From a virus: a stretch of 64,000 nucleotides of DNA. Each line of letters starts with the position of its first letter. Position 1 is the stretch's first letter. A model generated the notes under the pieces. It saw only the letters and a list, made by a program, of their open reading frames with translations, searched no databases and was not told the DNA's origin. Positions 1,013 to 11,528 of the stretch are shown one piece after another. A program made the translations under genes and the position numbers. The stretch covers positions 11,643 through 75,642 of the IMG/VR virus record IMGVR_UViG_3300027499_000005; one strand, given 5' to 3'.

Positions 1013-1247
1013 ACATAAAGTTGGCGATGTAGTGTACATTCAGAGTGAAAAATCTTACCACATCGTTACTAAAATCATAATAACAAAAGATAAAGTGTTA
1101 GGCATTTATGAAGATGTTCTGATAGGAACAAGAGTTTTGGCTGTCGAGCAGGATGCTGAACCTCGATTGTTCACGTTGCCCGCCGGTTCTCATGATCTTA
1201 TCAATGAAAAGTGGCTTTTAGAAAATGGCTCGATAATCACTGGTTGA
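993..1247 (+). CDS. small SH3/KOW-like paralog (GDL family)
   Basis: KHKVGDVVYI...HIVTKII; exact start uncertain. Confidence 0.7.
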   Translation: MKMLESKHKVGDVVYIQSEKSYHIVTKIIITKDKVLGIYEDVLIGTRVLAVEQDAEPRLFTLPAGSHDLINEKWLLENGSIITG

Positions 1248-1263
1248 GCCTTATTTTTTATCG

Positions 1264-1340
1264 TTGACGATCCCTTGACAACAAAACGCTTGCGGCTGGC
1301 AACCTCCTAGGCTATAATGATTGGGTCAGCGGGCGATGGG
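1264..1340 (+). promoter_or_regulatory. class I composite sigma70 promoter, copy 1
   Basis: TTGACG 1264, TTGACA 1275, TTGCGG 1290, 17-nt spacer, TATAAT 1313. Confidence 0.85.
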
Positions 1341-1362
1341 GCCACGACAGCGGAGGCAACGA

Positions 1363-1791
1363 ATGTCGCAACCTAAAATGGTACTCGGTTCTGACGGAAC
1401 AAAGCGGTGGTATCTAAATGGCAAACTCCATTGTGAGGATGGACCGGCTGTTGAATGGCCTAACGGAGAAAAGCATTGGTATCTCAACGGCAAACTCCAT
1501 CGTGAAGATGGTCCTGCTATTGAATGTGCTAACGGAAGAAAGTGCTGGTATCTCAACGGTAAAAAGCACCGTGAAGATGGACCTGCTGTTGAGTGGCCTG
1601 ACGGCCAAAAGGAATGGTTCCTCAAAGGAAAACTCCATCGTGAAGATGGACCCGCCGTTGAGCGTTCTAACGGATCAAAGTTTTGGTATCTCAACGGCGA
1701 AGAAGTCACTTGGAAAGAAGTCTTTCAACAAGCAAAAGGTGACTTGGAAAAGGAATGTCGGATTCTAACTTACGCCTTGGCAAATGGATAA
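1363..1791 (+). CDS. HREDGPA (MORN-like, 23-aa) repeat protein A
   Basis: Four 69-bp repeats of WYLNGKLHREDGPAVE; GGAGG RBS at 1352-1356 supports ATG 1363. Confidence 0.85.
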   Translation: MSQPKMVLGSDGTKRWYLNGKLHCEDGPAVEWPNGEKHWYLNGKLHREDGPAIECANGRKCWYLNGKKHREDGPAVEWPDGQKEWFLKGKLHREDGPAVERSNGSKFWYLNGEEVTWKEVFQQAKGDLEKECRILTYALANG

Positions 1792-1794
1792 ACA

Positions 1795-2148
1795 ATGTCG
1801 CAACCTGAAATGAAAGTTGATTCTGACGGAACAAAGCAATGGTTCCTCAACGGCGAAAGGCATCGTGAAGATGGACCTGCTATTGAGTATCCTAGCGGAT
1901 CAAAGTGGTGGTATCTCAACGGCAAATACCATCGCGAAGATGGACCCGCTATTGAATATCCTAACGGAGAAAAGCAATGGTATCTCAACGGCAAACTACA
2001 CCGTGAAGATGGACCTGCTGTTGAATATCCTAACGGAACAAAGTATTGGTATCTCAATAACGAAGAAGTCACTTGGAAAGAAGTCTTTCGCAACGCAAAC
2101 GGCGACTTGGAAAAGGAATGTAGGATTCTAACTTATGCCCTAACATAA
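1795..2148 (+). CDS. HREDGPA (MORN-like, 23-aa) repeat protein B
   Basis: Three repeats; N- and C-caps (MSQP..., EEVTWKEVF...GDLEKECRILTYAL) shared with protein A. Confidence 0.85.
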   Translation: MSQPEMKVDSDGTKQWFLNGERHREDGPAIEYPSGSKWWYLNGKYHREDGPAIEYPNGEKQWYLNGKLHREDGPAVEYPNGTKYWYLNNEEVTWKEVFRNANGDLEKECRILTYALT

Positions 2149-2179
2149 TCTATTTACTCAAAACCTATTTGGAGGCAAA

Positions 2180-2338
2180 ATGTCCAAGAAGCAGAAACAA
2201 CCAAAAGAACGCTCGCTTATTGCGCTTGGAATGATCCTCCGAACGGGAAACCACGCGGGCAAACATCATAACCGCGATTGGGATGTTGAGAAAGGCAAGT
2301 CCCGAAAGCAAAAGCATAGGAAAAACTATGACGGTTGA
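2180..2338 (+). CDS. 52-aa basic peptide with an ArfA-like C-terminal motif (speculative)
   Basis: Read manually, not in the ORF track: MSKKQKQPKERSLIALGMILRTGNHAGKHHNRDWDVEKGKSRKQKHRKNYDG; GGAGG RBS at 2171. Confidence 0.65.
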   Translation: MSKKQKQPKERSLIALGMILRTGNHAGKHHNRDWDVEKGKSRKQKHRKNYDG

Positions 2339-2531
2339 GAAGGGCGATCTGTTTAGGTTCAAAAGCGAAGTTTATCACAACGACTTGTTTATCATTCTTG
2401 GTAAAAAGGAAGATTTACCTTATGTTGACGGAAAGTATGGCGAACCGTTTAGATACCTTGTGTTAGAAACAAGCGAAGAAGGTTGGGATTATTCTAGTTT
2501 TATCTTCGAACAAGCAGAAAAGATAGGATAA
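2328..2531 (+). CDS. small SH3/KOW-like paralog (GDL family)
   Basis: MTVEKGDLFRF...EKIG*. Confidence 0.75.
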   Translation: MTVEKGDLFRFKSEVYHNDLFIILGKKEDLPYVDGKYGEPFRYLVLETSEEGWDYSSFIFEQAEKIG

Positions 2532-2535
2532 ACTA

Positions 2536-2730
2536 ATGAAACCAGAAAAAGGTGATCTTTATTGCTGGAAGCGTAATGGCGATGTTTTCGTTATTCTCGG
2601 TTTGGAAGAAGATTTTTTTCACGGTAAAGAAAATCCAACAATAAAAGTAAACTATTTTTCTTTGCGTTACAATAAAAGGTTTTGGGATAGAGCGGCTTAC
2701 ATCATAAACAATGCCGATAAGTTAGGATAA
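2536..2730 (+). CDS. small SH3/KOW-like paralog (GDL family)
   Basis: MKPEKGDLY...DKLG*. Confidence 0.75.
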   Translation: MKPEKGDLYCWKRNGDVFVILGLEEDFFHGKENPTIKVNYFSLRYNKRFWDRAAYIINNADKLG

Positions 2731-2734
2731 ACCA

Positions 2735-2908
2735 ATGGAATTCCAAAAAGGCGATTTGGTTGCTATTGATGTTTCCGGTTGGTATCAAACAATCGGGATT
2801 GTTTTGGATGATGATCCTACACCTCGTCCTCACGGATTTACTGCCTTTGATCTTAAGAAACAAACAAAGTTATTTGTTCTTGTAAAAAACGCTAAAAAGA
2901 TCGCATAG
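2735..2908 (+). CDS. small SH3/KOW-like paralog (GDL family), 57 aa
   Basis: Read manually: MEFQKGDLVAIDVSGWYQTIGIVL...KKIA*; AGGA RBS. Confidence 0.75.
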   Translation: MEFQKGDLVAIDVSGWYQTIGIVLDDDPTPRPHGFTAFDLKKQTKLFVLVKNAKKIA

Positions 2909-2917
2909 GAAAACAAA

Positions 2918-3094
2918 ATGGAAATCAAACTTTACACCTTCCAAATGGGCGATTTGGTCCAATGCGGAAGCATCACCGGAATCGTCGTCAGGCATTATTT
3001 CGGTTGTAGTTCGTTAATGCCGATTGACTTTCGAAACATTGCAAATGGTTCGCTTTGCATGAGCCACGCCGAAAATCTCCAAAAACTTGGATGA
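2918..3094 (+). CDS. small SH3/KOW-like paralog (GDL family), 58 aa
   Basis: Read manually: MEIKLYTFQMGDLVQCGSITGIVV...QKLG*. Confidence 0.7.
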   Translation: MEIKLYTFQMGDLVQCGSITGIVVRHYFGCSSLMPIDFRNIANGSLCMSHAENLQKLG

Positions 3095-3098
3095 ATGG

Positions 3099-3302
3099 AT
3101 GAAATACCAAAAAGGTGATTTGATTAGATTCCAGTCGCACTACATGAGTGACGAGGAAAAAGGTCTTTTCTTGGTTATTGACTCCCACAAAACACAGGGA
3201 TACTATTGTTATTGTCTAAAAAGTGGACAACCGACAAAACAGTTAGAAGGAACTAGGGGATACCTTCCTTATTCTGTACCTTACGAAACATTCGAAATCT
3301 AA
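3099..3302 (+). CDS. small SH3/KOW-like paralog (GDL family)
   Basis: MKYQKGDLIRF... Confidence 0.8.
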   Translation: MKYQKGDLIRFQSHYMSDEEKGLFLVIDSHKTQGYYCYCLKSGQPTKQLEGTRGYLPYSVPYETFEI

Positions 3303-3318
3303 TAAAAGTAGGTGACTC

Positions 3319-3519
3319 ATGGCAATCTGTTATAAGTGTGGTGATGATTTCTCCGAAAAGAGGCTTTCCCTAGGTTACCGAACTTGCTTGGTTTGTGGCG
3401 ATAAGGAAGCAAATACCGAGGCAAATCGGCGGCGCAAGTGTGTCGCACCAGCCTACAATAAAGGTGCTTACATGTATGTTTCGAATGTATCTGATGCCAT
3501 GTTCGCTGGCAAAAAGTAA
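3319..3519 (+). CDS. C4 zinc-finger protein (DksA/TraR-type finger, no coiled coil)
   Basis: CYKCGDDFSEKRLSLGYRTCLVC matches the CxxC-x-RL-x-CxxC finger. Confidence 0.65.
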   Translation: MAICYKCGDDFSEKRLSLGYRTCLVCGDKEANTEANRRRKCVAPAYNKGAYMYVSNVSDAMFAGKK

Positions 3520-3524
3520 GTAAA

Positions 3525-3722
3525 ATGTTGGAACCTGTTTTCTACGAAATCTACAAAAAAGGAGATTTGGTCGAGATTTCTGCGATTTCTCCAAAAAGCA
3601 CCAAAATGTACGGAATCGTAAAATGCCTCAGTAGACACCACAAAAACTATTATCGAGTGAAAGTATTCGGCATTCATCGTGATGTTTTTGCTGGTGCCGA
3701 CCAAATGAGACGTATAACCTAG
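3525..3722 (+). CDS. small SH3/KOW-like paralog (GDL family)
   Basis: YKKGDLVEI...YGIVKCL. Confidence 0.7.
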   Translation: MLEPVFYEIYKKGDLVEISAISPKSTKMYGIVKCLSRHHKNYYRVKVFGIHRDVFAGADQMRRIT

Positions 3723-3756
3723 TTTTTTCTTTGCTGTCAAAAAAAGGTCAAGGCGT

Positions 3757-3785
3757 TTGACGGTGGCCGCTTGATCGGATAAGAT
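3757..3785 (+). promoter_or_regulatory. sigma70-type promoter
   Basis: TTGACG 3757, 17-nt spacer, TAAGAT 3780; in an intergenic gap upstream of ATG 3812. Confidence 0.7.
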
Positions 3786-3811
3786 GTGTAGGAAAGGGAG
3801 CGAGGACCAAA

Positions 3812-4039
3812 ATGGAAATCGGAACGCTTTGTCGGCTTTCTAACTGCAACATTTACGTTGCGACAGAATATCGAGGTTTGACCTTGGTTGTTCTAGAACA
3901 TCAAAAGTTCCAACCTCTCAAAATCCCCGGTTGTCAGGAAATCCCAAGTAGAACCATGCTTACTTGCTTTGTGGTCGAAAAGAACGAAAAAACCATGTTC
4001 TTTGACTATCAACTGAGCGATGCCGAGGTTCTAGGATGA
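3812..4039 (+). CDS. small hypothetical (GTL variant of SH3-like family), copy 1
   Basis: MEIGTLCRLS...CFVVEKNEKTMFFDYQLSDAEVL. Confidence 0.75.
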   Translation: MEIGTLCRLSNCNIYVATEYRGLTLVVLEHQKFQPLKIPGCQEIPSRTMLTCFVVEKNEKTMFFDYQLSDAEVLG

Positions 4040-4227
4040 AGTTTGGAACGCTTTGTCGGCTTTCTAGCGATAGTATTTACCTTAGTAGGGATCATCATGG
4101 TTTGACGGTCATTGTCATGGAAGAAGGAAATCCTGCTAGCGGATTTTACTGCTTTGTCGTAGAAAAGTCCGAGAAACTTTGGTTTTTCGACTATCAACTC
4201 AAAGATGCCGAGGTTCTAAGCCAATGA
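4036..4227 (+). CDS. small hypothetical (GTL variant), copy 2
   Basis: MKFGTLCRLS...CFVVEKSEKLWFFDYQLKDAEVL; clear tandem paralog. Confidence 0.75.
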   Translation: MKFGTLCRLSSDSIYLSRDHHGLTVIVMEEGNPASGFYCFVVEKSEKLWFFDYQLKDAEVLSQ

Positions 4228-4499
4228 ACGACAAGTTTTGGGAAGAAGGCAAACTTTTCTCCTTTGAGGATACTGGCTCAAAGTTTTGGGCGATTATCAA
4301 GGGTTTTGTTCATTCCGACTATGGTAATAAGGTTCTGTTTACCATTTTCGCCCGAGAAGAATGGCGGCCAGCCGGTGATTTTAACTCGTTCTTTAATAAC
4401 GGATCCGATTACAAAGTCGGGCAAACCTACTCTTCTTCCAAACTCTGGCTTGTAAGCCGAATGTTGGACGGCTCGCCCGACTACGAGGAACAAACTTGA
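4224..4499 (+). CDS. hypothetical protein
   Basis: ATGA overlap start at 4224 (MNDKFWEEGK...). Confidence 0.6.
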   Translation: MNDKFWEEGKLFSFEDTGSKFWAIIKGFVHSDYGNKVLFTIFAREEWRPAGDFNSFFNNGSDYKVGQTYSSSKLWLVSRMLDGSPDYEEQT

Positions 4500-4555
4500 T
4501 TTTTCCTCCTCGTCAGCCAAAGTTTTGCAACTAATCTAAAACAAAGGAATAACCA

Positions 4556-4795
4556 ATGACTTTCGAAGAGTTCATCGATTTCTACGATAAAGAGGCTACG
4601 AACCCCGAGAACTACAATCTTCGGCGTGGCCAGTTGCTTTTCACGATCCTTCGCGAAGTGCGCCCCGATCTTTCCGAAAAGATCCGTTCTACCTCGCTAG
4701 ACCCTTTCTACCTTGATTCTTCGCTTCCGGTCTGCTGGCTCTACCTAAAGAACAACTGGCAAAATCAAGGTTCGCAGTCCCTTTGTTGGCCTTGA
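4556..4795 (+). CDS. hypothetical phage protein
   Basis: AAGGA RBS; RRGQLLFTILREVRPDL...DPFY pattern. Confidence 0.7.
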   Translation: MTFEEFIDFYDKEATNPENYNLRRGQLLFTILREVRPDLSEKIRSTSLDPFYLDSSLPVCWLYLKNNWQNQGSQSLCWP

Positions 4796-4880
4796 CGATC
4801 CCTTGACAAGAAAACGCTTGCGGCTGGCGACGGCCTAGGCTATAATGAATGGGTCAGCGGGTGATGGGCACCCGTCAAAC
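4792..4880 (+). promoter_or_regulatory. class I composite sigma70 promoter, copy 2
   Basis: TTGACG 4792, TTGACA 4803, TTGCGG 4818, 17-nt spacer, TATAAT 4841. Confidence 0.85.
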
Positions 4881-4904
4881 CAACAGCGAAAAAACGAGGA
4901 ATAA

Positions 4905-5705
4905 ATGGCTTACAAGCGTACTATCTACTGTCGGGCTTGCGGTTCTGCCGGTCATAACCGCTCTTCCTGCCCCCGCGAAAAGGCGCGCATCGAAGAACTG
5001 CGGGCAAACCACGGTTCCGACCATTGGCAAGTTTCGTCCTATGATCGTAAGCGTATGCGCTCTAAGGAACGGGCTTGCTCGTACTGTCAGGAACAGGACC
5101 ATAATCGTGTTTCTTGCCCGACTATGAAGGCCGACATGGATAAGATTCGTCCGCACATTTCGGCGTACCGTAGGGCTTTCATCGATGCACTTTGCAAGAT
5201 TGGTATGGTTCCGGGTACCATTGCCGTGCATAATCACGGCCAAGGTATCCGTAACATGTACCTTGTTGAGCGTATCAACTTCGAAGAGATCGACCTGTTT
5301 CTTCCGAGCCGGAATCCCTGCGTTGTTCGCGGCCTTTCGGTGACGGGCTTTGACGATAGCGAAGATTATCGTCGTCGCTGGTACATCAACGATACTGGCC
5401 TTCTCGGCTTTGCCCTTGATTCTACGTCGGCAATCGGCTATGATAACACTCCGCGTTATGATGACGTTGTTGCGGCTGGTTGCGCTGATTCTTTCCGCGC
5501 CTCTGTTCCAAAGGATTGGTTGGAGGCTAAGAATCTTTGTAAGACTCATTTCTCTAACACTCGTCAGTCTCGCGGTCGCAACGCTAAGAACGGACAATGG
5601 CTGATTAACGAGGTGGAAAGTGGAGAGTTTAGCCGAAAGGCCGAAAACCTGCCTTCCAACGTCGATAGGTTCTTGGACTTTAGCGGGCAGAATCCCTATG
5701 CGTGA
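4905..5705 (+). CDS. double CCHC zinc-knuckle protein
   Basis: CRACGSAGHNRSSC and CSYCQEQDHNRVSC (Cx2Cx4Hx4C); GAGGA RBS. Confidence 0.75.
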   Translation: MAYKRTIYCRACGSAGHNRSSCPREKARIEELRANHGSDHWQVSSYDRKRMRSKERACSYCQEQDHNRVSCPTMKADMDKIRPHISAYRRAFIDALCKIGMVPGTIAVHNHGQGIRNMYLVERINFEEIDLFLPSRNPCVVRGLSVTGFDDSEDYRRRWYINDTGLLGFALDSTSAIGYDNTPRYDDVVAAGCADSFRASVPKDWLEAKNLCKTHFSNTRQSRGRNAKNGQWLINEVESGEFSRKAENLPSNVDRFLDFSGQNPYA

Positions 5706-5735
5706 GAAGCCTAGGGTTTTCCTCCCTTCTCGCTC

Positions 5736-5823
5736 TTGACAATCGCTTGACAAGAAAACGCTTGCGGCTGGCGACCGCCTAGGCTATAATGATGGGGTCA
5801 GCGGGCGATAGTGCCCGCTGGCC
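5736..5823 (+). promoter_or_regulatory. class I composite sigma70 promoter, copy 3
   Basis: TTGACA 5736, TTGACA 5747, TTGCGG 5762, 17-nt spacer, TATAAT 5785. Confidence 0.85.
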
Positions 5824-5851
5824 AAAAAAACCAAAAGATAGGAAGAACCTA

Positions 5852-6163
5852 ATGAACACGAATGACTGGCAGATTATCAAGGATGATGCGCGCTTTCTCG
5901 TCGTTGGCGGGCACGATGTTGACTTCGAACTTGATTCCTACGAGGAAGCGGCTTCCTTCCTTGACTTCATGAACGAGGACGAGACTCGTAAGGAAGATCC
6001 TGACTTTTTCTTCGATGAGTGGTGCTACCTGCACTTCGAACTCCGCGCGCCGTCTTTCGATGAAAACGAAACGAACGACGAGCAAAACGAAGGTTCCTCC
6101 GAAATCGATTTCGAAGCGGAACTTGGCGAGGTTCTTTCGTACCTCGGCGTTAGCACGGTCTGA
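5852..6163 (+). CDS. highly acidic small protein
   Basis: D/E-rich (MNTNDWQII...DENETNDEQNEGSSEIDFE); AGGAAG RBS. Confidence 0.7.
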   Translation: MNTNDWQIIKDDARFLVVGGHDVDFELDSYEEAASFLDFMNEDETRKEDPDFFFDEWCYLHFELRAPSFDENETNDEQNEGSSEIDFEAELGEVLSYLGVSTV

Positions 6164-6177
6164 AAAAGGTAGGAACA

Positions 6178-6255
6178 ATGCTCACAATCGCTAAGATTTT
6201 CTTTGCCCTTTGCATTTTCGACGTTGCCTTTAGACTCTGGAGAATGCCAGAATGA
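6178..6255 (+). CDS. 25-aa hydrophobic micropeptide
   Basis: MLTIAKIFFALCIFDVAFRLWRMPE; upstream AAGGTAGGAACA; stop overlaps the next ATG. Confidence 0.55.
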   Translation: MLTIAKIFFALCIFDVAFRLWRMPE

Positions 6256-6590
6256 ACCTAGACAATCCGAATCAAGAAACTCGCTTGGTTGTTTCTTGCC
6301 CTCCGGTTATGCTCGCTCCAAGGGACGGTTTCCGTTTGGCGGGTTGCTACGGTACTTGGATTAGTGTCCCGGCCCACACGAAAATCGAGGATCTTTCTCG
6401 TTACTTCATCGTTCGCCCCTATGGCGCACCCCCGCCGGAAAGCAGGGTAGAACCTAAGACTTTGACCGTCGCTGGTTCTCGCGGAGGAACCTACACCGTT
6501 CGACTGCGTGAAAACGGGCAAACAACCTGCACTTGTCCCGGCTTTGGTTACCGTCGCACTTGCAAGCATCTAACTCTTCTTTCGGCATAA
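6252..6590 (+). CDS. SWIM zinc-finger protein
   Basis: CTCPGFGYRRTCKH (CxC-x-CxH) at the C-terminus. Confidence 0.75.
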   Translation: MNLDNPNQETRLVVSCPPVMLAPRDGFRLAGCYGTWISVPAHTKIEDLSRYFIVRPYGAPPPESRVEPKTLTVAGSRGGTYTVRLRENGQTTCTCPGFGYRRTCKHLTLLSA

Positions 6591-6600
6591 GGTAGGAACA

Positions 6601-6672
6601 ATGGACACTTTCATCCTGTTCGTAGTTTTCGGCTTTTTCTCGTTGATGGCTTTCCTTAGCGTTCCCGAGTAA
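6601..6672 (+). CDS. 23-aa hydrophobic micropeptide
   Basis: MDTFILFVVFGFFSLMAFLSVPE; same upstream AAGGTAGGAACA as at 6178. Confidence 0.55.
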   Translation: MDTFILFVVFGFFSLMAFLSVPE

Positions 6673-6694
6673 GGTACAACCTAATCTTTCAGCC

Positions 6695-6775
6695 TTGACG
6701 AACGCTTGACAAATCGTGACTTGCGGACGCTCGCCGCCTAGGCTATAATGTACGGGTCGCTGGATGAACCAGCAC
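6695..6775 (+). promoter_or_regulatory. class I composite sigma70 promoter, copy 4
   Basis: TTGACG 6695, TTGACA 6706, TTGCGG 6721, 17-nt spacer, TATAAT 6744. Confidence 0.85.
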
Positions 6776-6793
6776 CACTAACGGAGTCAACGA

Positions 6794-7663
6794 ATGAACG
6801 CCAAGAATCGCAAGAACACCGAGAATACCCCGACGACCCGCCGCTTTCAGGCACTCTTCGATAGCGGGCTTTTGACCGACCGTGACCGCTCGTTCCTTGA
6901 TAGTCTGCTTTCTTCCTACAAGCGTTCGGGTTCGCTCACCGCTGGTCGCCGTCAAGCCTTGGAAAAGGTTGAGGCTCGCATCCAAGAAACGAGGAACAAC
7001 CCCGTTTCTGTCGATACCGCTACGGAAACGCGGCTCAATGGCCTTCTTTCGTCGGGTGCGTTGGATTCTTGGGCTACTACCTTTGTTTCCTCGCTCCTGT
7101 CGCAAGTGAAGGTTGGACGTACTCTTTCGGCTGCTCAAACTGCACACCTCGTCAAAATCGAAGGAAAGATCAAGGCTAACGCCGACTTTGCTTCGACCTA
7201 CGACGATGCCGCTCGTACCTTGTTTTCCAAGGCTGTCAACTACTACCGTTCTACCTCGTACTTCAGCGATGTTGTCGCTAAGCACGATTCGGACTCCTCT
7301 TTCGTCCCTCCTGCGATTGTTTTCGAGAAGATGACGAACAACCCCTACTTTCGGAAGGTTCTTGCTGCTATGGAAGAACCGGCAAAGTTCTCCGATGGGG
7401 ACATTGTGCGCCTTGGAACTTTGAGCGGGGAAAACGGGCGTTCGACTTGGGTCAGGATTAGGGAGGCTCGACGCGGCGATCTCGGCCAGTCGATGCACAC
7501 CTACGATAAGGCTGGTGCTACCGTCATTCGTGGCATGGTGCTGAAAAGCGAGGGAAATCCTGTCGTCTCGGCTGTCAAGGGCGGGAAGCAGTATTCGGTT
7601 CTCTTCTTTGGGGCTTCTACGCCGGTTTTGGTTGAGGAGCGTTGGCTTCGGCGTTCTAAGTGA
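6794..7663 (+). CDS. hypothetical protein (289 aa) with an internal repeat and a possible C-terminal SH3-like domain
   Basis: GGAG RBS; the segment FLDSLLSSYKRSGSLTAGRRQAL recurs as FVSSLLSQVKVGRTLSAAQTAHL; C-terminal FSDGDIVRL. Confidence 0.8.
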   Translation: MNAKNRKNTENTPTTRRFQALFDSGLLTDRDRSFLDSLLSSYKRSGSLTAGRRQALEKVEARIQETRNNPVSVDTATETRLNGLLSSGALDSWATTFVSSLLSQVKVGRTLSAAQTAHLVKIEGKIKANADFASTYDDAARTLFSKAVNYYRSTSYFSDVVAKHDSDSSFVPPAIVFEKMTNNPYFRKVLAAMEEPAKFSDGDIVRLGTLSGENGRSTWVRIREARRGDLGQSMHTYDKAGATVIRGMVLKSEGNPVVSAVKGGKQYSVLFFGASTPVLVEERWLRRSK

Positions 7664-7736
7664 ACAATCGCCAAATCGAACATTTTCGAACAAATGCGTT
7701 CGACGGCTTGACCGTCCGGCCCGGATGCGATAAGAT
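7662..7736 (+). promoter_or_regulatory. class II sigma70 promoter with TCGAACA upstream repeats
   Basis: TCGAACA at 7676 and 7686; TTGACC 7708, 17-nt spacer, TAAGAT 7731. Confidence 0.7.
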
Positions 7737-7775
7737 GTAGGGGTCGCTGATGATAGCGGCTAACGCGGGGTTCGC

Positions 7776-7853
7776 ATGGACAAGGCTCTTATGGTAGGTT
7801 CTCTCTCTCTTTCTCTTGTCTCTGGCTTCCTTTGCCTCTTTTGGGGCCTCTGA
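7776..7853 (+). CDS. 25-aa hydrophobic micropeptide
   Basis: MDKALMVGSLSLSLVSGFLCLFWGL; weak GGGG RBS. Confidence 0.45.
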   Translation: MDKALMVGSLSLSLVSGFLCLFWGL

Positions 7854-7887
7854 TTCACAAACCGACTAACTGATGAGGTATAACGTC

Positions 7888-8004
7888 ATGAACTTCACGA
7901 TCATCGCCATTTCCGGCTTTGTTTCTGCTCTTTCGGCTTTGGTGCTTGGCTCCATCGCTTTCGCAACCGTCGCCGAAATCGGCATTGTCCTTACCACCAT
8001 CTGA
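7888..8004 (+). CDS. 38-aa hydrophobic micropeptide
   Basis: MNFTIIAISGFVSALSALVLGSIAFATVAEIGIVLTTI; GAGG RBS. Confidence 0.55.
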   Translation: MNFTIIAISGFVSALSALVLGSIAFATVAEIGIVLTTI

Positions 8005-8017
8005 TAAGAGGGCTACA

Positions 8018-8104
8018 ATGGACCTTTTCGACCGTCTTTTCTTCACCGCTCTCGGCATGGCCGAGGTTGCTACTTTCGTCCTTGGCTTTGGAAGCATCTG
8101 CTGA
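8018..8104 (+). CDS. 28-aa hydrophobic micropeptide
   Basis: MDLFDRLFFTALGMAEVATFVLGFGSIC; GAGGG RBS. Confidence 0.55.
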   Translation: MDLFDRLFFTALGMAEVATFVLGFGSIC

Positions 8105-8134
8105 TAACCAAGGTCTAACCAACGTCAACGCGCC

Positions 8135-8230
8135 TTGACAATCGCTTGACAACTAAACGCTTGCGGACGACAACCGCCTAGGCTATAATGAATGGGTCAG
8201 CGGGTGATGGACACCCTACGGTCTGACTCA
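8135..8230 (+). promoter_or_regulatory. class I composite sigma70 promoter, copy 5
   Basis: TTGACA 8135, TTGACA 8146, TTGCGG 8161, 17-nt spacer, TATAAT 8184. Confidence 0.85.
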
Positions 8231-8290
8231 CGGGACAAACGGCAATGTCGCCGTCCCCATCCAAAACAACGTAGTTTCCGAGGTTCTAAC

Positions 8291-9448
8291 ATGGCTATCG
8301 ACTTCTCCACCGCTTCCAAGGCTCTTCCCTACGTCGCAGCGGCGCGTCATCCTATCCTTTGGCGCGGTCGTCACGGTATCGGCAAGTCTGAGGCTATCAA
8401 GGCTTTTGCCGCTTCTATCGGGCTTCCCATCGTTGAGCGTCGCGCCGCACAGTTGCAGGAAGGCGACCTTTTGGGGCTTCCTTCGCCCACTATGGTTGAG
8501 GTCAACGGCGTTGAGGCTGCACAGTTGCGCCCCTTCGCGTGGCTTATCAAGGCTTGCACCGAGCCTGTCGTTCTCTTTCTTGACGAGGTTGATCGCGGCA
8601 CTTCCGAGGTTCGTCAAGGTATCTTCCAACTTTGCGATTCTCGCACGGTTGGCGATTGGCGGCTTCACCCCGACACTATCATCGTTGCAGCCGTGAACGG
8701 CGGCGAGAATGCCTCCGAGTACCAAGTTGGCGAGATGGATCCTGCGGAGTTGGACCGCTACACGACTTTTGACGTTGCTCCGTCCGTTGACGATTGGCTT
8801 TCGTGGGCCGGTGGCGAGAACGATGCTTCGTCCGTTGCTTCTGCCTTCGCAGCCATTCGCTCGTCGGTTGACAGCCGCGATAAGTCCGGTTCGCCCATCG
8901 ATTCGCTGATTGTGGACTTCATTCGTCAGAATCCGTCGCACTTGGAACACCGCGATACCTTCGAGCCTAACAAGGTTTACCCGTCGCGCCGTTCTTGGAA
9001 GCGTCTGAGCGATACGCTGGTTGCAGGCCGTCTTTTGGACGATGCCAAGGCTAACCGTGGTCTTATCGCTTGCCTTACCACCGCATACGTCGGGTTGGAG
9101 GCTTCTGTCGCATTCTCCGACTTCGCGGCCAACTATGAGCGTCAGGTGACTGCCGAGGAGATTATCAATGCCGGAAAGTTGGCTCGCGTGGCCGACTTTG
9201 GCGTGGTCGAGCATACCGCGCTTGTCGGTAAGATGAAGGATTCGGGTATCTTCAAGAGCGTGCTTTCCCCTGCACAGTTGAAGAACTTGGCGAACTACAT
9301 CACTCTTCTTCCTTCCGAGGTTGCAATGGTGCTTTTCGCTCACATCCCTGTCGCTGGCGATACCGGTCCTGCGAACATCGGCGCACTCTACAAGACTAAG
9401 GCCGACAATGGCAAGACCGTGCGTGAGTTCATCGTGAGCCTCATGTGA
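8291..9448 (+). CDS. MoxR-type AAA+ ATPase
   Basis: Walker A GRHGIGKS, Walker B LFLDEVDR, MDPAELDRY and PSRRSW motifs; GAGG RBS. Confidence 0.9.
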   Translation: MAIDFSTASKALPYVAAARHPILWRGRHGIGKSEAIKAFAASIGLPIVERRAAQLQEGDLLGLPSPTMVEVNGVEAAQLRPFAWLIKACTEPVVLFLDEVDRGTSEVRQGIFQLCDSRTVGDWRLHPDTIIVAAVNGGENASEYQVGEMDPAELDRYTTFDVAPSVDDWLSWAGGENDASSVASAFAAIRSSVDSRDKSGSPIDSLIVDFIRQNPSHLEHRDTFEPNKVYPSRRSWKRLSDTLVAGRLLDDAKANRGLIACLTTAYVGLEASVAFSDFAANYERQVTAEEIINAGKLARVADFGVVEHTALVGKMKDSGIFKSVLSPAQLKNLANYITLLPSEVAMVLFAHIPVAGDTGPANIGALYKTKADNGKTVREFIVSLM

Positions 9449-9470
9449 TAAGCGGCGACCAACGCCCACT

Positions 9471-9501
9471 AAGCCCAGCCTAACCCGCTGGGCTTTCTTT
9501 T
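9471..9501 (+). terminator. intrinsic terminator
   Basis: AAGCCCAGC-N7-GCTGGGCTT followed by TCTTTT. Confidence 0.85.
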
Positions 9502-9550
9502 ATCCACGTTCTTCCTCGATAGTACTACGCTTGTCAGAACCCGAGTTTAG

Positions 9551-9990
9551 CAAGGAGATAGCTGGTCTTTCGGGTACCAACGGAGAGGCATCTAGCAGCC
9601 GTTCTGAGCGAGCCTAGACGCTAGGGCTACCGTGAGCCACCTAGGCCACCCTAACGCGCTCCTAGAGCCGTTCTAGCCCGTCCTGCGGCGGTTCCCGCCC
9701 TAGCCTTGACGCTCGCCGTTCTAGCCGCTGGACGTTGACGCCGCCACCGACGACTGATAACTATTCAGGATCTACCTTGCATAGAACCAAGCCCTCTAGG
9801 ACTGCAAACTGCAAAGGATAAAGCCTGACTTTGGAGTACCAACGGAGAGGCGTCTGACAGACGTTTGGAGCGATCCTCGACGCTAGGGCTATCATGAGTC
9901 ACCCGAGCGTCTAGGGCGTCTGCTAGGGCCGTCTGAGAGCGTTTTATAACGTGTCCTGCGGTTGTTCGGGCTAGCCGTCAACCTCGCCAC
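9551..9990. repeat. imperfect direct repeat (period 262 bp) in a CTAG-rich non-coding spacer
   Basis: 68-nt cores at 9574 and 9836 match at 57/68 positions; 13 CTAG sites in 9592-9974. Confidence 0.85.
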
Positions 9991-10090
9991 CGAGCCAGCA
10001 GCACCAATGGAGCAACGCCGATTTTCAGGGTTCACAAACGCTTGACAACCCCTTTGCTCGTCCACCTAAACCAAAGACAAGGAAGGAAGG

Positions 10091-10166
10091 GAACAATAAC
10101 CAAATCGAACAACTTCGAACAATCGCTCCCGGCTTCCTTGACGCTGCGAGCGTAGCCGGTTACATT
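10091..10166 (+). promoter_or_regulatory. class II sigma70 promoter with TCGAACA upstream repeats
   Basis: TCGAACA at 10105 and 10115; TTGACG 10138, 17-nt spacer, TACATT 10161. Confidence 0.7.
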
Positions 10167-10226
10167 ATGGGGGACGGTAATCCTTCCGTTATTCGCGGCT
10201 CAACCAAACAACCAAGGTACAAACTG

Positions 10227-11528
10227 ATGACCGCAACTTCTCCTGCTCCTATGCCGACTTTCGACATGAACCTGCACATTCACAAACTCATGCTGAAAGA
10301 GCCGTTTTTCGCCGCTATTTCGCGACGCATGAACAAGGTCGCTACTACCTCCATTCCTACCGCTGGCGTCCGTGTCAACCCCGATTCGCTCGCGTTGGAA
10401 ATGGCTTACAACCCTGCTTTCTTCAACCGGCTTGTGGCGGAACACGCTGATTTTGTCGGTTCTATGAAGGTTAAGGAACGCAAGGCTTACGCTTCTGCTC
10501 ACCCCGGCGATAATGGCGAGGTTGATCCTTACGTTTGGGTGCGTGGCGTCCTGTTGCATGAGTTGTATCACATTGTCTTTGGTCACATTACCGAGCGTTT
10601 GCCCGATGGTACCATGACTAAGAAGTGGAACCATGCGACGGACCTTGCTATCAATAGCAACCTTCAAGGTCAACTTCCGTCGTACTGCCTCATGCCCGGT
10701 GTTGGCGAATACGCTGATTTGCCCCTTGGCAAGTCGGCTGAGTTCTATTTCCGTTCCATCGTGGACCCCGAGGAGAAAAGCAAGGATCAAAGCCAACAAG
10801 GTCAAGGTCAGCAGGGTCAAGGTGATGGTCAAAATGAAGGTCAAATCGATGACCATTCCGGTTGGGGCGACCTTCCCGACGACGTAAAGGACGCTGCAAA
10901 GGAAGCAATGCGTCAGATTACGGAGCAAGCGGTCAATGAGGCAAACGGCAACTCGCAAGGTTGGGGGTCGGTTTCTGCTTCTATGCGTGAAAAGATCCTT
11001 GATTCTATCCGTGTCAAGGTTAACTGGCGCGCACACTTGCGTTATTTCGTAAAGACCTCGATGAAGGCCGATAAGCGCACTTCTATCTTCCGTATCAATA
11101 AGCGGTTTCAGTACGTTCATCCGGGAAAGAAGGCTAGCCGTACTGCTAAGATTGCAATCTCTATCGACCAGTCGGGTTCGGTGGATGATGGGCTTCTTAC
11201 TGCCTTTTTCTCGCAACTGGATTCCCTCGCTCAGATTGCGGAGTTCACGGTTGTTCCCTTTGATACTCACGTTGACGATTCCAAGGTTTACGTTTGGAAG
11301 AAGGGCCAACATCGCAAGGTTGAACGTGTGCTTTGCGGTGGCACCGACTTCAATGCGCCCACCAAGTGGGTCAATGAACGCAACTTTGATGGTCACATCA
11401 TTTTGACCGATTTGGAGGCCCCTATTCCGGTGTCCAGTAAGTGTCAGCGTATGTGGATGACGGATAAGTCCTGCTACAACCGTCGTTCCTTCAACATCAA
11501 TGAGCGAATCATCGTTATCGAAGGATAA
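10227..11528 (+). CDS. metallopeptidase-like + vWA domain protein (DUF2201-type MoxR partner)
   Basis: LLHELYH (HExxH), WNHATDLAINS, Q/G-rich linker, MIDAS IDQSGSV, GGTDF, ILTDL. Confidence 0.88.
   Translation: MTATSPAPMPTFDMNLHIHKLMLKEPFFAAISRRMNKVATTSIPTAGVRVNPDSLALEMAYNPAFFNRLVAEHADFVGSMKVKERKAYASAHPGDNGEVDPYVWVRGVLLHELYHIVFGHITERLPDGTMTKKWNHATDLAINSNLQGQLPSYCLMPGVGEYADLPLGKSAEFYFRSIVDPEEKSKDQSQQGQGQQGQGDGQNEGQIDDHSGWGDLPDDVKDAAKEAMRQITEQAVNEANGNSQGWGSVSASMREKILDSIRVKVNWRAHLRYFVKTSMKADKRTSIFRINKRFQYVHPGKKASRTAKIAISIDQSGSVDDGLLTAFFSQLDSLAQIAEFTVVPFDTHVDDSKVYVWKKGQHRKVERVLCGGTDFNAPTKWVNERNFDGHIILTDLEAPIPVSSKCQRMWMTDKSCYNRRSFNINERIIVIEG

Follow-up and report, generated by a model that had tools for sequence, protein, structure and literature searches.

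Promoter-linked stem-loops of T4-type phages and the studied locus

Promoter-plus-stem-loop repeats have already been described for T4-type phages, namely as the PeSLs of RB49/phi1, PST/T4 and nt-1/KVP40 (Arbiol et al., 2010, PMC2839356; Comeau et al., 2014, PMC4122927). A PeSL consists of a repeated sigma-70 early promoter and a GC stem-loop, often built as a G-run, a loop and a C-run, and is found in hyperplastic regions before ORFans, with the stem-loop in one of five positions, of which one is downstream of the -10; PeSLs also take part in recombination, the crossovers (in RB49, those of mini-circles) having been mapped to the loop (PMC2839356, PMC4122927). Here we analyse six transcript leaders, five of them within copies of one promoter cassette, in a 64-kb stretch of an uncultured phage genome (the window, G000:C1:11643-75642 of the linear 147-kb IMG/VR virus record IMGVR_UViG_3300027499_000005; coordinates refer to the window unless another locus is given). 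The original prediction, made from the letters of the window, had seen in these leaders a conserved 5'-terminal hairpin with compensatory changes on every early transcript, marking it for stabilisation or antitermination, and had not recognised the PeSLs. The cassettes are, with a probability of about three in four, mobile early-expression cassettes of the PeSL type in a T4-type phage, and their leader hairpin is a local trait of one cassette subfamily.

The same 147-kb record encodes a Gp23 major capsid protein (PF07068, E 6e-59) and a T4-type portal protein gp20 (PF07230, E 7e-80), and the phage is therefore T4-type. Identities to cultured phages in tblastn searches are all below 40 % and point to no closest cultured phage, and a megablast search with window 4700-9500 against 50,697 phage records gave zero matches.

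One repeated promoter cassette, five unrelated genes

The window contains exactly five copies of the 14-mer CCTAGGCTATAATG, at 1306, 4834, 5778, 6737 and 8177, always on the + strand, and all five cores sit within one direct repeat of approximately 96 nucleotides (nt) in five copies (family D3). As the alignment of the copies shows, the repeat starts with two upstream boxes (TTGAC-N6-TTGACAA) and a 7-nt linker, continues with a weak -35 (CTTGCGG), a 17-nt spacer with CCTAGGC at its end and the -10 TATAAT, and enters the leader with 3-4 variable nt followed by GGGTC(A)GC(G/T)GG..GAT(G/A); the start GGGTC(A)GC shortly after the -10, as originally described, is thus confirmed. A Shine-Dalgarno sequence and an ATG follow 44-101 nt downstream of each cassette copy, and the genes behind the five cassettes are mutually unrelated. 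A sixth leader with a hairpin (GGGTCGCTGATGAT, from 7741) stands behind a different promoter, TTGACC-N17-TAAGAT. The copies and their genes are as follows.

1254..1349, + strand: copy D, with TTGAC at 1264-1268, TTGACAA at 1275-1281, the -35 TTGCGG at 1290-1295 and the -10 TATAAT at 1313-1318
From 1323, + strand: leader of copy D, GGGTCAGCGGGCGATGG, with a degenerate hairpin of 3 base pairs (bp)
1363-1791: gene of copy D, MORN-repeat protein; the leader shares homology in its 3' part with the ribosome-binding site (RBS) region of class-A MORN paralogs
4782..4877, + strand: copy A, -10 at 4841-4846, hairpin at 4857-4875, GCGGGUG-AUGGG-CACCCGU, 6-7 bp
4905-5705: gene of copy A, 266-aa protein with two CX2CX4HX4C zinc knuckles
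5726..5823, + strand: copy C, -10 at 5785-5790, hairpin at 5796-5823, GGUCAGCGGGC-GAUAGU-GCCCGCUGGCC, 11-12 bp, followed by A7
5852-6163: gene of copy C, ORFan
6685..6780, + strand: copy E, the most divergent, -10 at 6744-6749, hairpin at 6755-6776, GGU-C-GCUGG-AUGAA-CCAGC-ACC, 5+3 bp with a bulge
6794-7663: gene of copy E, ORFan; the leader shares homology in its 3' part with copy D and the MORN RBS region
7708..7761, + strand: copy F, of the other promoter class, TTGACC at 7708-7713, N17, TAAGAT at 7731-7736
7742-7761: hairpin of copy F, 8 bp of which 3 are G.U, in the leader GGGUCGCUGAUGAU, which is of the same kind as the cassette leaders
From 7776: open reading frame (ORF) behind copy F, 25 codons, hydrophobic
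8125..8229, + strand: copy B, -10 at 8184-8189, hairpin at 8194-8229, 5+7 bp
Within 8194-8229: stems of copy B, the inner GGGUG/CACCC as in copy A, the outer GGGUCAG/CUGACUC across a 1x6 internal loop
8291-9448: gene of copy B, AAA ATPase, preceded by a 101-nt leader

The locus resembles the PeSLs in the T4-type phage that carries it, with its Gp23 and portal, in the repetition of a near-consensus sigma-70-like early promoter (five exact cores in the 96-nt repeat), and in a GC stem-loop at the promoter with the core CGGGYG...CRCCCG (GGG...CCC), five of the six leaders folding and one being individually significant. Small ORFans in a variable early region and the occurrence of the same cassette before unrelated genes are shared as well. 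The identity among the copies, calculated by segment, is 0.90 over +1..+17 (divergent copy 6737 excluded) and falls to 0.39, which equals background, over the 17 nt that follow. The unit of homology thus stops in the loop, which is where the crossovers of the RB49 mini-circles map.

Several differences from the PeSLs are evident. The stem-loop is here always on the transcribed side and has no U-tract, and the terminator role of one RB49 PeSL is therefore unlikely at this locus. Two TTGAC boxes lie upstream of the -35 instead of an AT-rich tract, the -35 is weak (TTGCGG), and the copies with a hairpin number only five or six and are all tied to a GC-rich island. Comparison with the 94-99 % identical relatives showed no indel bounded by a cassette; they differ from this phage by recombination between paralogous genes and not at the cassettes. 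A further promoter to the left of the window (L001:71-135, G000:C1:11518-11582) carries a GCGGG-UGGCC-CCCGC hairpin in the spacer between -35 and -10, then TATAATGAATGGG; the motif is that of the leader hairpins, but in another PeSL position.

The GC-rich island (window 4000-11500, 49-57 % GC versus approximately 40 % elsewhere) contains every foldable cassette and looks like a block of other origin or under another constraint. Its genes encode the zinc-knuckle protein, a SWIM protein, ORFans, an AAA/MoxR-type ATPase and a DUF2201 metallopeptidase/VWA protein.

Folding of the leaders

For 40-nt RNAs beginning at GGG, the minimum free energy (MFE) was compared with that of shuffled sequences, with the following results.

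5795 leader (copy C): MFE -24.8 kcal/mol, z -5.0, 0 of 200 shuffles as good
8194 leader (copy B): MFE -16.4, z -1.9
4851 leader (copy A): MFE -14.4, z -1.45
6754 leader (copy E): MFE -11.5, z -1.5
7741 leader (copy F): MFE -12.9, z -1.3
1323 leader (copy D): MFE -9.0, z +0.1 to +0.5 across two analyses, no hairpin

In the promoter-wide analysis of leaders, copy C even reached z = -7.5. As the 5' arm is G-rich and the region has 50-57 % GC, the leaders were also compared with constructs in which the conserved 5' half was kept and the 3' flank was drawn randomly from the same island. Such constructs already have a mean MFE of about -10 kcal/mol, and the probability of a contiguous stem as good with random flanks is 0.0004 for 5795, 0.044 for 7741, 0.045 for 4851, 0.14 for 6754, 0.19 for 8194 and 0.82 for 1323. 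Combined after Fisher, with 8194 left out as it shares both arms with 4851, the p value is 3e-4, and 0.03 once 5795 is removed. There is thus a real pairing tendency with one outstanding hairpin (5795) and one dead copy (1323). The stems quoted in the original prediction are present at 4857, 5796, 6755, 7742 and 8194, as seen in sequence and folding; the copy at about 1325, which it had listed as a weaker hairpin, does not fold.

In copies C, F and B, G.U pairs give the sense strand a folding advantage of 2-5.5 kcal/mol over the antisense strand (antisense -19.7 kcal/mol for copy C and only -7.4 kcal/mol for copy F). Most 3' arms pair although they lie beyond the end of the repeat homology, so that either selection acts on the pairing or a complete ancestral hairpin is being lost, with its 5' half held by another force.

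A putative 5'-terminal stabiliser of early mRNAs

Stem-loops at the 5' terminus protect Escherichia coli mRNAs, and RppH needs at least two unpaired 5' nucleotides, according to a review (PMC3997798, citing Emory et al., 1992; Bouvet and Belasco, 1992). In the decay of T4 early mRNA, host RNase E is a main route (PMC3014915). Tentatively, with a probability of roughly 0.4, we propose that the hairpin of the cassettes is a 5'-terminal mRNA stabiliser. Observed are the repeat, the anatomy of the promoter, the foldability of five of the six leaders, the absence of U-tracts and the T4-type identity of the phage.

In the proposed mechanism, a host sigma-70-type promoter carries a GC stem-loop directly behind its -10, so that the stem-loop is transcribed as the first approximately 20-36 nt of the mRNA. 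Transcription would start at one G of GGGUC, 5-7 nt past the -10, leaving the nascent 5' end base-paired with 0-4 nt free. Such a paired end may hinder pyrophosphate removal by an RppH-type enzyme and attack by the 5'-end-dependent RNase E/G (or RNase J). Messages of the island genes (for the zinc-knuckle protein, the ORFans and the MoxR-type ATPase) would live longer as a result, with the A-rich linker and the ribosome site remaining open. The conserved cassette may double as homology for gene shuffling.

For predicted starts 5-8 nt past the -10, the number of unpaired 5' nt is 0-4, and 0-1 for 5795, 7741 and 8194; in folds of the whole leaders the hairpin is retained, with a single-stranded A-rich linker and RBS. 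That the same kind of leader occurs behind the other promoter class in copy F also counts for a stabilising role, as does the strand asymmetry of folding in copies C, F and B. The leaders are like the 5' hairpins of ompA and papA (Emory, Bouvet and Belasco, 1992, cited in PMC3997798) in the placement of the hairpin 0-4 nt from the predicted 5' end, and differ in that the stems are mostly shorter, one copy is broken and the 5' end is predicted only. Further points in common with 5' stabilisers are the single-stranded A-rich linker followed by a free ribosome site and the GGG start. The leader of phage T7 gene 10, a further 5'-terminal stabiliser stem-loop, likewise begins at +1 with GGG.

If 5'-end protection is true, the copies constitute a natural series with the same promoter and 5' arm and with strong, medium, weak and broken stems, which could show gene-by-gene tuning of early mRNA lifetime in T4-type phages and would test whether the 'SL' of PeSL acts on the cassette's own transcript instead of as a terminator. 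Otherwise the locus is a further case of modular promoter cassettes in phage hyperplastic regions, the main use of which is the annotation of transcription units in uncultured freshwater T4-type phages.

Conservation and distribution of the hairpin

A number of observations weigh against a stabilising RNA element. Copy C is the sole individually significant hairpin, and the loss of the hairpin in copy D together with the absence of the outer stem in copy A resembles decay rather than maintenance.

Neither is there one conserved structure to be detected by comparison. RNAalifold found zero consensus pairs in a MAFFT alignment of the six leaders, and a covariance model, as had been proposed, built from the 5795 hairpin recovered that copy (E 1e-11) and its own reverse complement. 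For 4851 the E value was no better than 1.2, for 8194 it was 7.9 with a misaligned match, and 6754, 7741 and 1323 were missed, so that at E below 1 the best copy stands alone and no family is detectable by the model. By hand, two double changes that keep a pair can be found, U-A in 4851/8194 versus C-G in 5795 and G-C in 5795 versus U-A in 6754; in the 7741 3' arm, three transitions relative to the perfect complement each yield a G.U pair. The stems thus appear related by eye, as judged from the sequences, with two double changes being too few for a test, and a conserved hairpin with compensatory changes, as initially claimed, is not borne out.

External copies of the hairpin-bearing cassette do not help, as they are found only on metagenome contigs that are 94-99 % identical; the hairpins are identical there and therefore hold no covariation information. 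Pattern scans of IMG/VR and the JGI metagenomes returned only such near-identical copies (L074-L077) or unrelated chance matches, and protein-guided searches of IMG/VR and in genome scans with the 289-aa and 266-aa genes returned no loci; the 289-aa protein has metagenomic relatives of 51-60 % identity. In Rfam 15, no family matched the window at gathering score, nor did any match 1200-10300 when E values up to 5 were allowed.

The hairpin is also far from general among early promoters. Among approximately 23 candidates in the first 22 kb of the genome, most have the form TTGAC-N6-TTGACTTGAC-N17-TATAAT with unstructured leaders of 20-30 nt; leaders with z <= -1.5 are only the five that start with GGGTC in the GC-rich island, and about 17 other early promoters of this phage lack a leader hairpin. 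A sixth promoter of the cassette class, at G000:C1:9311 (L006), has a short leader without structure. In other phages, a pattern scan matched the three-box architecture at 35 IMG/VR loci (L018-L052), with short leaders (TATATTATATGTATAGAAAGGAG); 32 distinct promoters of related phages have a mean z of 0.01 over +1..+36 and no leader hairpin, a minority of them having a hairpin across the -35 or the spacer. These counts contradict the statement that every early transcript carries the element and its role as a general mark of early transcripts.

The three-box promoter TTGACA-N5-TTGACAA-N7-CTTGC-N17-TATATT is common in large (up to approximately 200 kb) uncultured phages, for example at L030:4784-4890, with boxes that begin 11 and 15 nt apart.

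Alternative explanations

The main rival, somewhat less likely than the stabiliser, is that the hairpin has no function as RNA and is a decaying or chance by-product. The conservation of +1..+17 could reflect contacts of RNA polymerase or promoter escape at the DNA level, such that this segment is promoter DNA (an initial transcribed region affecting open-complex stability or escape) and the inverted repeat is a decaying ancestral PeSL stem-loop, aided by the easy pairing of a G-rich arm in GC-rich DNA. The confinement of the high identity to the 5' half fits this explanation, as do the broken copy D and the vanished outer stem of copy A, the p values of 0.04-0.19 that four of the six stems obtain against random island flanks, the lack of a consensus structure and the hairpin-free promoters of the same type elsewhere. 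The combined stem statistics are nevertheless above chance, also without copy C, folding is asymmetric between the strands, and the divergent copies E and F match their altered 5' arms with 3' arms of their own, in F by way of the three G.U-preserving transitions.

Less probable again is an action of the stem-loop not on its own transcript but on read-through RNA from the upstream cassette, either as an attenuator or pause site, as the authors of the PeSL studies proposed, or as a barrier shielding the upstream message at its 3' end once it has been cleaved. One stem-loop of an RB49/phi1 PeSL cut lacZ expression as strongly as rrnB T1 (PMC2839356), no terminator is predicted between the cassettes over 4800-9450, so that read-through RNA contains the hairpins, and copy C is very stable. 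Yet none of the six hairpins has a U-tract, that of copy C being followed by A7, whereas the evident terminators of the phage all have T-runs; the other stems, of 5-8 bp, would be weak barriers. As intrinsic terminators proper, the hairpins were rejected on account of the missing U-tract, and a consensus terminator scan did not include them.

The original prediction had also considered antitermination, for which lambda nut/boxB and HK022 put are the models. A signal of this type, or one bound by a phage protein that reads the shared GAUR loop, would agree with the presence of an RNA hairpin early in phage early transcripts and with the GAU(G/A) that each of the six copies has in its loop or next to it despite variable stems; a protein with two CCHC zinc knuckles is moreover encoded directly behind copy A. 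We regard it as quite improbable. No boxA (CGCUCUUA-like) lies beside any hairpin, matches with one mismatch falling within genes or within the upstream TTGAC box, and the loops (AUGGG, AUGGA, GAUAGU, AUGAA and AUGA) are, in size and sequence, not the GNRA-like pentaloops of boxB. HK022 put is a two-stem element of approximately 70 nt, different from the single short hairpin found here; no Rfam match was obtained in the search up to E 5, and the units contain no downstream terminators to be read through. GAUR is located inside the homologous repeat unit, so its presence in all copies is explained by shared ancestry. N or put antitermination is not known to occur in T4-type phages.

The 266-aa protein (4905-5705) has its retroviral-type zinc knuckles in the first 71 residues, with a Pfam zf-CCHC_2 match below the curated cut-off, which weakens it as a partner of the loop; it has no PHROG and, by peptide scan, no IMG/VR relative. 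Only with great reserve may one consider that the conserved half of the leader, GGGUC(A)GC...GAUR, displayed on a stem that varies, addresses messages to a small post-transcriptional regulon and would be read by a phage RNA-binding protein recognising the G-rich loop, with this zinc-knuckle protein as the candidate, and through which messages of the GC-rich island (ORFans, MoxR-type ATPase) would be jointly stabilised, silenced or processed.

Least credible of all is a double-stranded DNA operator for a phage repressor, a palindrome over +1 at the classical operator position overlapping the start site, as arm sequence, arm length, bulges and loop size vary among the copies, several pairs are G.T and hence mismatches on the other strand, and the left half alone is conserved. 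A leader peptide from the AUG of the loop was rejected, as there is no ribosome site and the AUG is within approximately 15 nt of the start.

Neighbouring genes and further elements

In the copies at 1306 and 6737 (D and E), the RBS segment of the class-A MORN genes is present, which, like the use of one cassette before unrelated genes, is a footprint of shuffling and matches the PeSL description. MORN paralogs starting with MSQP(K/E)M are found at window 1363-2148, at G000:C1:147, 8134 and 8478 and in L074-L076, behind two different classes of promoter cassette; the near-identical metagenome relatives L074-L076 are without one of the two tandem MORN copies.

Phages with an ATPase that is 45-50 % identical do not share the cassette. 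Some of them have a promoter-proximal hairpin of their own before the ATPase gene, GGGUGUCYUGA-GCGGU-UCRRG.CAC(CC), at L014:7930-7958, L015:7931-7959, L083:1167-1195, L079:778-806 and L095:116-144(-), a family which also occurs upstream of other genes in related phages. It keeps 91 % of pair cells, with one double change and several G.U switches, and has no Rfam match. Its covariance model has no match in the window at E up to 10, so the window hairpins were rejected as members and the hairpin on the ATPase side is analogous rather than homologous to them.

Two 90-nt direct repeats, 80 % identical and without Rfam match, lie at window 9552-9641 and 9814-9903 in a gene-free gap of approximately 750 nt between the ATPase and DUF2201 genes. 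The window has no tRNA genes; to its left, early promoters appear to drive tRNA-like sequences directly (G000:C1:2767-2900, 6712-6850 and 10300-10430), with a T-arm-like GGTTCGAATCC within approximately 100 nt of the promoter.

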